A DNA stretch of 24,000 nucleotides from Magnetovibrio sp. PR-2 (GCF_036689815.1 NZ_JBAHUR010000022.1:13041-37040), one strand, 5' to 3'. Counted from the stretch's first letter, positions 14,651 to 22,178 are shown. The notes: generated from the letters alone by a model not told the origin. A program made the numbers and translations.

Positions 14651-14676
14651 TCACAAAACGGCTCCTCGCGCGTCTG
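14651..14676 (+). promoter_or_regulatory. Locus promoter motif copy 1: TCACAA-N14-CGTCTG
   Basis: Reads TCACAAaacggctcctcgcgCGTCTG, 75 nt upstream of ATG 14752. It is one of seven copies of the same spaced motif in this locus. Confidence 0.6.
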
Positions 14677-14751
14677 CTCTTTAGGACGGGAGCTAGCGGT
14701 GCTGGCCTCCCCTATTGATCATGCATAGCACCAAAGCGGGGAGAACGTGTC

Positions 14752-15129
14752 ATGAGCGACAACACCACGACCACAACCAGCGTCGATACCATACTCGAAA
14801 CCAACCAGATGGTTTTGGAAGCGTATGAAATGAGCACCACGGAAAGTGCCGGAGTGGTGCAAGACAGCAATTCAATGGAATGCATCGCCAAGCACTACGA
14901 ACAATATGTGCAGAACTACCAAGAGACTTGGCAAGCCGCATGGTTGGACACGATCACAGCTTACGAAAAAGAAGTGGAAGGCTGGCAAGATGCGGTGAGC
15001 ATCTTCCAAGCGCAAACGCAAGCTGCAGCCCAAAGCCCGACCGAACCCAGCGCGAATAAATCAAAAAGCACAGGTAAAAGCAAAGCCAAAAGCACCCATT
15101 CGAAACCTAGGGACGGCGAGGACGGGTAA
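14752..15129 (+). CDS. Hypothetical protein (125 aa), acidic helical N-part and Lys/Ser-rich tail; R-body locus associated
   Basis: ORF with a GGGGAGAA RBS 8 nt upstream. It is the first gene behind motif copy 1. I recognise no family. Confidence 0.6.
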   Translation: MSDNTTTTTSVDTILETNQMVLEAYEMSTTESAGVVQDSNSMECIAKHYEQYVQNYQETWQAAWLDTITAYEKEVEGWQDAVSIFQAQTQAAAQSPTEPSANKSKSTGKSKAKSTHSKPRDGEDG

Positions 15130-15135
15130 CGCATC

Positions 15136-15420
15136 ATGGCCGACGACAGCTCTAAGCCCAGCCCGAAAGCCATTGCCCAGTCGGTGATTGAGTCCATGAA
15201 CATGACCAACAGCGTCATGAAATCCATACAAACCAACATGGAGGCAGCTTTGTCCAGCGCCGGACCGATGATGAGCGACTTGATCAAAAACAGCACCGAC
15301 ATCAATCAGGCGGCAACAGACAAAATTATTGAAACCATCAAGTCGTCGGGCCAGAGCGACCAGGAGTCCGACCAGGAGTCCGATAAGGATTCAAAAGACA
15401 CAAAAACCGACAAAGGCTGA
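15136..15420 (+). CDS. Hypothetical protein (94 aa) with acidic DQES-repeat tail; R-body locus associated
   Basis: ORF begins 6 nt after the preceding stop. An RBS-like GAGGACGGG is present. I recognise no family. Confidence 0.55.
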   Translation: MADDSSKPSPKAIAQSVIESMNMTNSVMKSIQTNMEAALSSAGPMMSDLIKNSTDINQAATDKIIETIKSSGQSDQESDQESDKDSKDTKTDKG

Positions 15421-15438
15421 TCGGTCAGGAGAGGTTCC

Positions 15439-16251
15439 ATGTCAGCACAACAAGATCCGCAACATCCACAGCAGCAACACCCAACGCTTCCGATCGAAAA
15501 CGGACCGGAAACGGCGATCCCGCAAACGGCGATCCCGCATATGGGAACATCGCAAGCAAACGTGCCCCAACCCAGTGTCGACACCGGCGTTCAAAGCCAT
15601 GCGCCGCAAGCTCCCCTTCAAACTCAGGCCCAGGCCCAACCGCAGGCCCAACCGCAGCCCACGGTGCACATGCCACCCTTGCCCCAAGGTGTAACCCAAA
15701 ACGCCATTGACGCCGCAATTGCCCAGGTCGAACAAACCGGAAAAACAGACGGTATTTCTCCCGAAGTTATGGCCGCAGCATGTGCCCAAATCGAAGCCCG
15801 TGCGAAGGCCCAAAGCATTGACGTCCAACAGGTCGCCCAATCCGTAGCGAATGCCCCGCCGCAACCGCAACCACAACACGGCGCAGAAACAGCCGTAAAC
15901 GATAAACAAGGCACCATGCAACAGTTTGCGGACCAGCGCGATTCCTTGCGTCAACAAGTCGCTGAGCAACGCGACGCCATGCAACAACCGATCAATGCCG
16001 CTTTGAACAACGGCCAAGGGGGCGCCACGTCTTTCGATCCAGAAACCATTGCCGAGCTCACCCGCGCGGTTAAGGACCTGGACCCCCAAACCCTTGCCTT
16101 GATTAACGCCGTCGGACAAATGAGCGCCAACCCTTCAATCCTCAACACTGTGGTTTGGATCGAAGTCATTCGCGCCATGCGCCGTTTAATTGCGTCCGAA
16201 GCAAAGAAGCAAGTCGAAGACTTGGCCCCCGCCACCCCTACGGCACACTGA
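15439..16251 (+). CDS. Hypothetical Gln/Pro-rich protein (270 aa); R-body locus associated
   Basis: ORF with an AGGAGAGG RBS 5 nt upstream. It contains QAQAQPQAQPQP and TAIPQTAIPH repeats and has a helical C-terminal part. The antisense 225-aa ORF (15442..16119) is judged a shadow. Confidence 0.6.
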   Translation: MSAQQDPQHPQQQHPTLPIENGPETAIPQTAIPHMGTSQANVPQPSVDTGVQSHAPQAPLQTQAQAQPQAQPQPTVHMPPLPQGVTQNAIDAAIAQVEQTGKTDGISPEVMAAACAQIEARAKAQSIDVQQVAQSVANAPPQPQPQHGAETAVNDKQGTMQQFADQRDSLRQQVAEQRDAMQQPINAALNNGQGGATSFDPETIAELTRAVKDLDPQTLALINAVGQMSANPSILNTVVWIEVIRAMRRLIASEAKKQVEDLAPATPTAH

Positions 16252-16303
16252 CCCACGAACAACCCTGCTCACATTTGGATCTGATTTTGCCGATTTGCCG
16301 CAA

Positions 16304-16330
16304 AAGGCACCTCAGGGGCGCCTTTTTTTT
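16304..16330 (+). terminator. Rho-independent terminator after the plus-strand trio
   Basis: GGCACC-TCAGG-GGCGCC forms a stem with one mismatch, followed by T8. Confidence 0.6.
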
Positions 16331-16459
16331 GAATGAGACACGCTCACTGCGTGCAATTTATTCATCTAAATGAAATTCGATCACCCCCATAATATTCAAT
16401 CAAGAGATGCGCTTAAATCATACCGCAATGGGCCGCTAAAAAAATCCGTACAAATAACA

Positions 16460-16486
16460 TCACAAACCCTTGTTTTCATCCGTCTT
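16460..16486 (+). promoter_or_regulatory. Locus promoter motif copy 2 (N15 spacer): TCACAA-N15-CGTCTT, upstream of the sigma factor gene
   Basis: Reads TCACAAacccttgttttcatcCGTCTT. It lies 173 nt upstream of the first in-frame ATG (16660) and 368 nt upstream of ATG 16855. Confidence 0.5.
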
Positions 16487-16854
16487 TAAACAGAACGCAC
16501 TGCCTAAGCACAATCAAAAAGAGATTTAGCAGTGCAGATTTGGTGTGACTATCAGAGGAGGTCTCTTGCTCCAGCCACAACTATTTAGGGAATTAGCAAT
16601 TCTCTATTTATCTCTATCAGATGAATGTAGTTTGGCCTGGGTAGGCGTCAAAATATGCCATGGGGGTTTTTAGTTTTCCCGGTCAACCGGGGTTTCGCAC
16701 ACACGGGCAACACCTTGAAGACACACATACCGATCAACTCAACGATTCCATTTCCGAGGTTCCGGGGCCAGGGACCACACGCAAGTCCCGCAGTAGGAAA
16801 CGCCTCTCCCCGGCGGCGGTCATTGCCCGGTCCCTGGCGCCGGACGCTCAACAC

Positions 16855-21030: not shown

Positions 21031-21115
21031 CTGAATTCTCCTTAAAAAAGACCTGATTACTTGTCTGTTTTCTCTGTATGCCGTGCACTCGTCTGTGCAT
21101 CGTGCGTTCAGTTAT

Positions 21116-21141
21116 GAGACGCCATAGGCCCGGTGTTGTGA
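21116..21141 (-). promoter_or_regulatory. Locus promoter motif copy 5: TCACAA-N14-CGTCTC
   Basis: The plus strand reads GAGACG-ccataggcccggtg-TTGTGA, 85 nt upstream of ATG 21030. Confidence 0.6.
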
Positions 21142-21193
21142 TGAAAAAACATGTGTTTTTAATTCGTTTTCCAATGGCTTGTAAAATGGCACC

Positions 21194-21224
21194 AAAAAAC
21201 CCGCCCGCCCAAAGGGCAAGCAGG
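21194..21224 (-). terminator. Rho-independent terminator of gene 21253..21585
   Basis: The minus strand reads CCTGCTTGCCC-TTT-GGGCGGGCGGG followed by TTTTTTGG. The stem is 11 bp including G-U pairs. Confidence 0.7.
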
Positions 21225-21252
21225 TTTCAGGTGTTCGGACGCGTTTCTGCGC

Positions 21253-21585
21253 TTAGCTGACGCCAGAGGTCGATGCGCGCAGAGCGCTCAACAATGCCAG
21301 CATATTGTTCGGCACGTCGGACTGGGAAATCTTGGACGTTGCGGCGGCACCAGCCATGGTGTCGACACTGTAGATTTGAATAACGCCCTGGTTCGTCGCG
21401 GCTTGCGAAGCGATAGCCAGTTGCTGCTGCGAGCTGGTGGCGTTTTCGTACAAGATACCCGTGGAATGGGACAGCGATTGGTACAGAGCACCCATCGCCA
21501 TTGCGGGGGCGTCACCAAGAACCTTGACGTTGGCCTGGGTGACGGCGTCCGTGATCTGGCCGTTAACCGGAGTGGGTAGAGCCAT
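21253..21585 (-). CDS. RebB/killing-trait family protein, long subtype (110 aa), tandem copy 2
   Basis: It differs from the 20698..21030 product at 9 of 110 residues. The RBS is AAGGAGA. It has its own motif copy and its own terminator. Confidence 0.9.
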   Translation of the reverse strand: MALPTPVNGQITDAVTQANVKVLGDAPAMAMGALYQSLSHSTGILYENATSSQQQLAIASQAATNQGVIQIYSVDTMAGAAATSKISQSDVPNNMLALLSALRASTSGVS

Positions 21586-21667
21586 TTTCGATCTCCTTTA
21601 CATCGTTTAGGACTGCCTGGCACCGAGGCTTGTTTGTTCGGCCTTGCGGTGCACCTCTCTCATGGTA

Positions 21668-21693
21668 GAGACGTCGGTTGTTGGCAGTTGTGA
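21668..21693 (-). promoter_or_regulatory. Locus promoter motif copy 6: TCACAA-N14-CGTCTC
   Basis: The plus strand reads GAGACG-tcggttgttggcag-TTGTGA, 82 nt upstream of ATG 21585. Confidence 0.6.
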
Positions 21694-21780
21694 TTTATGA
21701 ACTGACTTTTTCAAAATTTTTTCCGTTGCTTTGGAATTCCGACCCGTCCCCGACATCGGGCCAGAATGTTCCAAGTGCAC

Positions 21781-22104
21781 TTAGGACGTGGTTGCGCGCA
21801 GAGCGGTCAACAAAGACAGCATATTGTCCGGAACGTCGGAATTTGCGATCTTAGACGTTGCCACAGCTGCGGACATGGGCGGTACGGAATAGATCTGAAT
21901 AACGCCTTGATTGGTGGAAGCTTGGGCCGCGATACCCAGTTGCTGTTGCGAGCTCACAGCGTTCTCATACAAGATACCTGTAGAGTGCGAAAGCGACTGG
22001 AAGATTGCACCCATTGCCATAGCCGGGGCATCGCCCAGTACTTTGACGTTGGCTTGGGTAACGGCGTCCGTGATCATTCCGTTCACGGGAGTGGGCATAG
22101 CCAT
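21781..22104 (-). CDS. RebB/killing-trait family protein, long subtype (107 aa), tandem copy 1
   Basis: Sequence is MAMPTPVNGMITDAVTQANVKVLGDAPAMAMGAIFQSLSHSTGILYENAVSSQQQLGIAAQASTNQGVIQIYSV... The RBS is AAGGAGA. Confidence 0.9.
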   Translation of the reverse strand: MAMPTPVNGMITDAVTQANVKVLGDAPAMAMGAIFQSLSHSTGILYENAVSSQQQLGIAAQASTNQGVIQIYSVPPMSAAVATSKIANSDVPDNMLSLLTALRATTS

Positions 22105-22152
22105 AGGCTGTCTCCTTTAAATTTGCCAAATGTTCCTCTCCCCTACAGCTAT

Positions 22153-22178
22153 GAGACGACCTGCTCTTAGGATTGTGA
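22153..22178 (-). promoter_or_regulatory. Locus promoter motif copy 7: TCACAA-N14-CGTCTC
   Basis: The plus strand reads GAGACG-acctgctcttagga-TTGTGA, 48 nt upstream of ATG 22104. Confidence 0.6.

Follow-up and report, generated by a model that had tools for sequence, protein, structure and literature searches.

A probable R-body (reb) cluster of Magnetovibrio sp. PR-2, apparently read by its own ECF-type sigma factor

The DNA analysed here is a stretch of 24,000 nucleotides (nt) from Magnetovibrio sp. PR-2 (GCF_036689815.1, NZ_JBAHUR010000022.1:13041-37040), referred to below as the window, and every protein queried from it matches this source, a contig of 37 kb, exactly. The locus of interest, at positions 14651-22178, is probably the R-body (reb) cluster of this organism, an ordinary member of a type that is widespread in the Proteobacteria, and is apparently read by its own extracytoplasmic function (ECF)-type sigma factor through the motif TCACAA-N14/15-CGTC. 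It contains nine consecutive genes on the minus strand (17674-22104) and four on the plus strand (14752-17535), the latter being three low-complexity genes and, in the same orientation and opposite to the reb genes, the sigma gene (Table 1). In the NCBI annotation of PR-2, six of the minus-strand genes are named 'RebB family R body protein' and the sigma gene 'RNA polymerase sigma factor', and the products of 167, 215, 186, 125 and 270 amino acids (aa) are labelled 'hypothetical'. None of the nine minus-strand open reading frames (ORFs) is disrupted, and each is preceded by a strong ribosome-binding site, AAGGAG; a mechanically called ORF at 18537-18962 (141 aa) is truly the 107-aa gene starting at 18860, in agreement with the NCBI model.

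An earlier note, made from the sequence alone, had recognised a Reb signature in seven of the minus-strand ORFs and divided them into three subtypes. Both observations were reproduced: the alignment recovered QITDAVTQ(A/T)NVKVLG and ENA..QQQ, and the set comprises four long proteins (107-110 aa), two short ones (75 and 83 aa) and one of 167 aa with a Ser/Asp-rich N-terminus. At the DNA level, the region of the N-terminal signature forms a repeat family of seven copies. When the minus-strand ORFs were searched with the Pfam RebB profile (PF11747, cut-off 24 bits), six scored 63-100 bits, the 215-aa protein 24.7 bits and the 167-aa protein 20.2 bits. The diagnostic features described for primary Rebs are QITD flanked by prolines, KxxxD/E, an NAV-like motif (NAV/NAT), QQQ and a rarity of Cys, Trp and Phe (Dorr 2026, PMC13430693); the long paralogs here read P-x-P-VNGQITDAVTQANVKVLGDAP...ENA(V/T)SSQQQ, with the Reb diagnostic motifs intact. 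Long Reb 2 is 94-98% identical to proteins of Magnetovibrio blakemorei and of a Rhodospirillales metagenome-assembled genome (MAG) and 44% identical to Caedibacter RebB, the long Rebs share 63-66% identity with proteins of R. pomeroyi, Chromobacterium and Lysobacter, and inner long Reb 4 is 62% identical to long Reb 2. Both short genes carry LAMENAxQxQGGxQQIGN, and short Reb 2 is closest to the short Reb of R. pomeroyi and to Caedibacter RebD. An R-body system is expected to possess at least two long paralogs together with a short one; we found four long and two short, with Caedibacter RebB and RebD, respectively, as their best matches. A search of the PDB by sequence returned no solved Reb structure.

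The remaining minus-strand genes are more divergent members of the same family. The profile match of the 215-aa protein, just over the cut-off, covers residues 154-209 at its C-terminus, its family aligned with the Reb profile over 63 columns (hhalign E-value 4.7e-4), and homologues occupy the same position in 44 loci. The 186-aa protein matched small Thalassospira ORFs in phmmer (E-value ~1e-6), which themselves score 26-36 bits against the Reb model, and its first 66 residues aligned with Reb through these intermediates (hhalign probability 95%, E-value 3e-8), whereas the shallow four-sequence alignment of its own family was negative; because the assignment is positive solely with the Thalassospira intermediates, it is a transitive one. 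Among the Caedibacter proteins, the 167-aa protein matched RebD best (phmmer E-value 3e-8). Because the 215- and 186-aa genes, previously taken for accessory genes, also carry divergent Reb domains and the 167-aa protein matches RebD, all nine co-directional minus-strand genes are, as judged by sequence, members of the Reb family. The earlier view that the accessory proteins have no recognisable family thus fails for the 215- and 186-aa products. The 270-aa product p270 has no match in Pfam or NCBIfam.

In order to place the locus among its relatives, we scanned one genome per species, which gave at least 521 confirmed relatives, and fetched the best 80 hits (74 distinct loci). This sample is biased towards relatives of the long paralog, so that the comparison of set size given here is valid for this clade only. 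Sixty-three loci have the architecture of the window, namely one to seven outer long Rebs and zero to two divergent ones, followed by a short, a long, a short and a 167-aa-like gene, the last of which closes the array, as in the window, in the great majority of them. The gene order is kept from 41% to 98% protein identity, and loci of the window type span the Alpha-, Beta- and Gammaproteobacteria, with carriers in Thalassospira, Nisaea, Kordiimonas, Tistlia, Brevundimonas, Caulobacter, Phenylobacterium, Rhizomicrobium, Vineibacter and Methylobacter and in MAGs of Sedimenticolaceae and Rhodocyclaceae. The window gives eight Reb-model hits, against a median of seven (range 5-14) per window-type locus, so that the proposal of an unusually large set is unsupported. 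The largest set observed, with 14 hits, is that of Methylobacter tundripaludum (locus L013, 2469-12539), which has two complete reb arrays in 10 kb.

Nor does the proposal of an undescribed variant hold. R. centenum has been reported to carry six Reb copies and M. mediterranea nine, and the same paper describes distantly Reb-like partners labelled 'hypothetical' and a synteny pattern that includes a sigma factor linked to the cluster (Raymann 2013, PMC3583457). A recent survey lists 471 taxa with three or more reb genes in a cluster and distinguishes 1,406 synteny patterns (Dorr 2026, PMC13430693). Because 63 loci share the architecture, clusters with multiple paralogs and a sigma factor have been published and NCBI has already annotated the genes, the description 'expanded, undescribed variant' is unsupported.

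The element TCACAA-N14-CGTCTC emerged when the sequences preceding the three outer long genes were aligned. The window contains seven exact copies of TCACAA-N14-CGTC, against 0.09 expected, and an additional variant with N15 spacing. Six of the seven lie on the coding strand, 50-87 nt 5' of long Rebs 1-3, the 215-aa gene, the inner long Reb and the 125-aa gene, and the outermost copies (14651 and 22178) coincide with the exact ends of the region delimited by the earlier note. In the fetched loci there are 218 copies in 1.43 Mb, against about 3 expected from the ten fixed bases, of which 193 stand directly 5', on the same strand, of genes labelled by homology to proteins of the locus, mostly reb genes; 34 precede sigma genes. 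The sequence of the spacer is unconserved across these loci. Sigma-70 consensus promoters are unenriched in the locus (two, against 4.1 expected), and an Rfam scan of the window gave no RNA families. Because the motif precedes the reb units, the plus-strand operon and the sigma gene, with the same placement across the fetched loci, an autoregulated sigma regulon is suggested, in which the sigma factor of the cluster would transcribe reb as five units, together with the accessory operon and, by autoregulation, its own gene. Strong hairpin terminators delimit the units, being found after long Reb 2, the 167-aa gene and the sigma gene.

The product of that gene, which the earlier note had already called an ECF sigma factor, is ECF-type by both profile and fold: it passes Pfam Sigma70_r2, Sigma70_r4_2 and Sigma70_ECF, scores 59 bits against the 43-bit cut-off of TIGR02937 (sigma70-ECF), and its AlphaFold2 (AF2) model has SigH, AlgU, SigL, SigE and SigW as its top Foldseek matches. 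It is related to the sigma factor of the R. pomeroyi cluster (E-value 8e-14), and a homologue adjoins the reb cluster in 65 of the 80 fetched loci, about 60 of these being of the window type (about 60 of the 63). Its N-terminal extension contains two copies of a motif (S/T)PxxΦΦA(R/Q/K)(S/A), SPAAVIARS at residue 50 and SPVDIIARS at residue 67 (residues 50-76, window 16809-16889), at which AF2 places short helices with moderate confidence. One or two copies of this motif are present in 41 of 60 sigma homologues, and it is missing from the sigma factors of loci resembling the cluster of P. aeruginosa PA14; it could be a docking or regulatory site.

Table 1. Features of the reb locus in the Magnetovibrio sp. 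PR-2 window (positions counted from the first nucleotide of the window).
Position	Strand	Feature	Evidence or remark
21781..22104	-	Long Reb 1, 107 aa, RebA/B-like structural subunit	Pfam RebB 95 bits; NCBI 'RebB family R body protein'
21253..21585	-	Long Reb 2, 110 aa	Pfam RebB 100 bits
20698..21030	-	Long Reb 3, 110 aa	Pfam RebB 100 bits
19824..20471	-	215-aa protein	Basic/acidic low-complexity N-terminus and divergent C-terminal Reb domain
19235..19795	-	186-aa protein	Residues 1-66 a divergent Reb domain; tail rich in Pro and Gln
18952..19179	-	Short Reb 1, 75 aa, RebD-like	Pfam RebB 63 bits; position kept in ~60 loci
18537..18860	-	Inner long Reb 4, 107 aa	Pfam RebB 78 bits
18223..18474	-	Short Reb 2, 83 aa, RebD-like	Pfam RebB 84 bits
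17674..18177	-	167-aa divergent Reb, Ser/Asp-rich N-terminus, terminal gene of the array	Pfam RebB 20.2 bits, E-value 6e-4, below cut-off
16660..17535	+	ECF-type sigma factor, 291 aa, ~125-aa N-terminal extension with two SPxxΦΦARS motifs	Pfam, TIGR02937 and AF2
14752..15129	+	125-aa protein p125, first gene of the plus-strand operon	Homologues confined to Magnetovibrio-like genomes
15136..15420	+	94-aa protein p94, small reb-linked family	Homologues in 10 loci
15439..16251	+	270-aa protein p270, all-helical family without annotation, reb-linked	37 members in fetched loci
22155..22178	-	Promoter-like motif TCACAA-N14-CGTC, 50 nt 5' of long Reb 1	Exact match; same position in other genera
21670..21693	-	Promoter-like motif 5' of long Reb 2	Exact match
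21118..21141	-	Promoter-like motif 5' of long Reb 3	Exact match
20548..20571	-	Promoter-like motif 5' of 215-aa gene	Exact match
18926..18949	-	Promoter-like motif 5' of inner long Reb	Exact match; same placement in Thalassospira, Kordiimonas
14651..14674	+	Promoter-like motif 5' of 125-94-270-aa operon	Exact match; kept in M. blakemorei (L008 10615-10638)
16460..16484	+	N15-spaced promoter-like motif 5' of sigma gene	TCACAA-N15-CGTC, 175 nt before sigma start
21199..21224	-	Intrinsic terminator after long Reb 2	Hairpin and T-run, -27.6 kcal/mol, z -6.5
17610..17629	-	Intrinsic terminator ending reb array	-15.5 kcal/mol, z -3.4
17556..17574	+	Intrinsic terminator after sigma gene, convergent with reb array	Hairpin search and folding energy

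The best-characterized system for comparison is that of P. aeruginosa PA14 (rcgA-fecI2-rebD-rapA-...-rebP1P2), in which the sigma factor FecI2 controls reb, is needed for rebP1 together with RcgA, and expression is stochastic (Wang 2021, PMC8322103). This cluster corresponds to the Group 2 synteny of Raymann 2013 and to groups 2/3/S4 of Dorr 2026, and is represented in our sample by loci of Paraburkholderia, Lysobacter, Chromobacterium and Chitinolyticbacter (L073-L080) and by the R. pomeroyi megaplasmid. The window resembles this type in having long Rebs of the same clade, Chromobacterium and Lysobacter having been placed with RebP by Wang et al., in placing, after a short RebD-like gene, a longer Reb-like one that is divergent, and in encoding an ECF-type sigma factor within the cluster (HP2.3/FecI2); in addition, the same box motif stands 5' of the RebD-like gene in Paraburkholderia (L075). 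With the Chromobacterium and Lysobacter proteins as proxies, the window would fall within Dorr's group 2. It differs in possessing an extra short-long-short core and two extra divergent Reb genes, one promoter-like motif for each long paralog, the p125-p94-p270 accessory operon and the ~125-aa N-terminal extension of the sigma factor, and in lacking the ~207-aa hypothetical (HP207-type) protein, which we found in L073, L075-L077, L079, L080 and R. pomeroyi and in neither the window nor any window-type locus. The 167-aa protein stands at the position of RapA, after the RebD-like gene, and matches proteins at that position weakly (19 bits, E-value ~1e-6, in a small set); the likeness being positional and weak, we dropped the identification with RapA (S4), which is among the HP2.1/HP2.2 hypothetical proteins (~205-220 aa) of this cluster type, and the 167-aa protein is a possible counterpart at most.

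Other known systems are more distant. The rebA-rebB-rebC-rebD operon of Caedibacter taeniospiralis pKAP298 has the same family and the same division into long and short proteins, but is plasmid-borne, in an obligate endosymbiont, and has three Reb homologues plus the unrelated RebC and no sigma gene in the operon. Nothing in the window resembles RebC (114 aa, WP_011178482.1; Dorr 2026, PMC13430693), and the rebB-rebD gap of the PLSDB record contained no RebC-like ORF for comparison. The reb operon of A. caulinodans (AZC_3781-3788; Matsuoka 2017, PMC5527310), whose R-bodies are toxic to host cells, has a single operon promoter under the Crp/Fnr activator RebR and the repressor PraR and, unlike the window, no sigma factor. 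Lastly, the window shares with ECF237 an ECF sigma gene flanked by several genes for RebB-domain 'killing trait' proteins (Casas-Pastor et al., bioRxiv 10.1101/2019.12.11.873521), although that group is described as mainly from Bacteroidetes.

Several points weigh against an R-body cluster read by its own sigma factor. An autoregulated ECF promoter is expected to combine an AAC-like -35 with a CGT-type -10 element; with 14 nt separating TCACAA from CGTC, the motif agrees with an ECF promoter only when the -35 core is taken as TCAC. The motif could also bind another factor. The seventh exact copy (4268-4291, minus strand) lies inside the 5' part of a gene for an HlyD-family membrane-fusion protein (3152-4402), downstream of a PadR regulator gene; this copy is probably due to chance, an internal promoter being a further possibility. 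No protein of the locus matched an anti-sigma family in Pfam or NCBIfam, and no inducing signal was identified. In the literature searched, R-bodies are unreported for Magnetovibrio or for any genus with this cluster type, Thalassospira included.

One alternative is that TCACAA-N14-CGTC is the site of a regulator encoded elsewhere, of the Crp/Fnr type like RcgA or RebR, acting on what would still be an R-body cluster. There is precedent for this in PA14, where RcgA is required besides FecI2, and the RebR site of A. caulinodans (GTRMC-N4-GKYAC; PMC5527310) shares a GTCAC-like half-site with the window motif, whose promoter role at this locus is itself deduced from sequence. We nevertheless consider it unlikely. 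A jackhmmer search with the R. pomeroyi Crp as query found homologues of this Crp/Fnr regulator (HP2.4/RcgA/RebR), besides that of the R. pomeroyi megaplasmid, in five PA14-like loci only (L073, L075, L076, L077 and L080) and none in the window or the window-type loci, and the element, consisting of two fixed boxes at a fixed spacing, is non-palindromic, ends in the ECF hallmark CGTC and co-occurs with the sigma gene, preceding it in the 34 cases noted above.

It is decidedly unlikely, in our judgement, that the cluster is cryptic, that is, inherited or horizontally acquired without being expressed here to give a functional structure. Our literature search found no report of R-bodies in the magnetotactic relative M. 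blakemorei, which has been much imaged, and the related locus L083 keeps the sigma module, with no reb genes in the 10 kb fetched on that side; however, if well under 1% of the cells expressed the cluster, which is the situation in PA14, this would readily go unnoticed, and the intact ORFs and ribosome-binding sites, the intact promoter boxes and terminators and the conservation of gene order down to 41% identity all argue for a working cluster. That the Reb-domain proteins modulate the neighbouring ECF sigma factor instead of building R-bodies, as Casas-Pastor et al. raise for ECF237 genes and as the lack of an evident anti-sigma factor at the locus might suggest, is very unlikely given that the long Rebs are 64-66% identical to proteins of Chromobacterium and Lysobacter, both of the RebP clade, whose PA14 members build R-bodies, that QITD, KxxxD, NAV/NAT and QQQ are all intact, and that three to seven near-identical, separately promoted copies of structural type suit the bulk production of a polymer, not regulation.

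If the locus is an R-body cluster under its own sigma factor, as we believe to be probable, the known systems suggest how it would work. R-bodies have been purified from Caedibacter, PA14 and A. caulinodans, and by homology with those systems the long paralogs here most likely polymerise together, within the cytoplasm, to form a coiled ribbon, which would unroll at low pH, for example in the phagosome of a grazer, and rupture membranes; the short and divergent Rebs would by analogy be minor or assembly components. The sigma factor would recognise the motif 5' of the five reb units, the accessory operon and its own gene, the last giving a positive feedback that would fit all-or-none expression in a few cells, as in PA14. 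The release of the sigma factor may be controlled through its SPxxΦΦARS extension and through p94 and p270, which are candidates for this role.

The accessory operon encodes proteins none of which is Reb-like. Members of the p270 family are often found directly upstream of the sigma gene; p270 has 39 database homologues, none with a Pfam domain, and its AF2 model (predicted local distance difference test score, pLDDT, 69) gave no Foldseek match in the PDB below an E-value of 2. The order p94-p270(-sigma) recurs in Vineibacter (L065), L066 and L015, the full order p94-p270-sigma being that of Vineibacter terrae and of a Rhodospirillaceae MAG; in Kordiimonas the two genes share a strand, with p94 upstream. 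A family, X, occupies the position of p125 in the operons of Vineibacter and L066, but an hhalign comparison of p125 with this family was negative. The three proteins could act in controlling the sigma factor or in assembling R-bodies. In L083 (ENA ERZ25073486 NODE_17, 9351-12087; 43% identity in p270) the three-gene operon and sigma gene are kept, as is the upstream synteny (histidine kinase, response regulators, GGDEF/EAL, epimerase and GT4), and the 10 kb fetched beyond the sigma gene contain no reb genes.

The motif also precedes lineage-specific genes that adjoin reb clusters and whose products match no Pfam family; these may be extra members of the regulon. They encode proteins of ~540-640 aa in 20 Thalassospira loci (e.g. 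L026 6034-7773), of ~1000-1090 aa in L022 (4743-7790, minus strand), Vineibacter (L065 16991-20269, minus strand) and L066, with a copy in L009 cut by the contig end, and of ~235 aa in Brevundimonas, Caulobacter and Phenylobacterium (e.g. L012 8726-9433, minus strand).

A more speculative reading, which we regard as doubtful, is that of an undescribed cytoplasmic switch, in which the SPxxΦΦARS motifs are gated by the co-transcribed p94 and p270 and, with autoregulation, would give bistable, suicidal expression of R-bodies without a Crp-type co-activator. On this reading, the unannotated motif-marked proteins of ~580 aa (Thalassospira) and ~1000 aa (Vineibacter and others) could be the cargo or toxins, long sought, that R-bodies deliver.

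Some features of the flanks should also be recorded. Upstream of the locus, on the plus strand (5997-10520), lie genes for a HAMP histidine kinase, a response regulator and a response regulator-PAS-GGDEF-EAL protein, followed by an epimerase and GT4, and this module is syntenic with the reb/sigma region in relatives to ~41% identity (L083, L085). On the other side, an ORF of 266 aa (22398-23198, plus strand), whose N-terminus resembles a signal peptide, is oriented divergently to the first reb gene and stands in a stretch of 43% G+C, against ~55% around it; neither Pfam nor NCBIfam places it in a family, the related loci contain no homologue, and it may be a recent insertion. A near-identical reb array is present in L001 (ENA ERZ23498357 scaffold_294, 14100-18544), where two PAS/histidine-kinase sensor genes separate the sigma gene from the 167-aa gene and the upstream flanks differ, with an OmpA-family gene and a gene for a 1111-aa protein.

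The locus itself changes little, adding a genus of a magnetotactic lineage to a long list of reb carriers, and it was already annotated as a reb locus. What is new here, and on which the interest mainly rests, is the promoter consensus, the extension of the sigma factor and its conserved unannotated partners. The first is a simple consensus that would predict the regulon of the sigma factor across many genera, and it comes with a clear split between this sigma-only type of cluster and the Pseudomonas type, which has sigma plus Crp; p94, p270 and the N-terminal motif of the sigma factor form a shortlist of conserved unannotated candidates for the control of R-body expression. Because R-bodies attract interest as devices of virulence or of defence against grazers, and also as protein actuators driven by pH, an expression switch that is both defined and self-contained would be handy.

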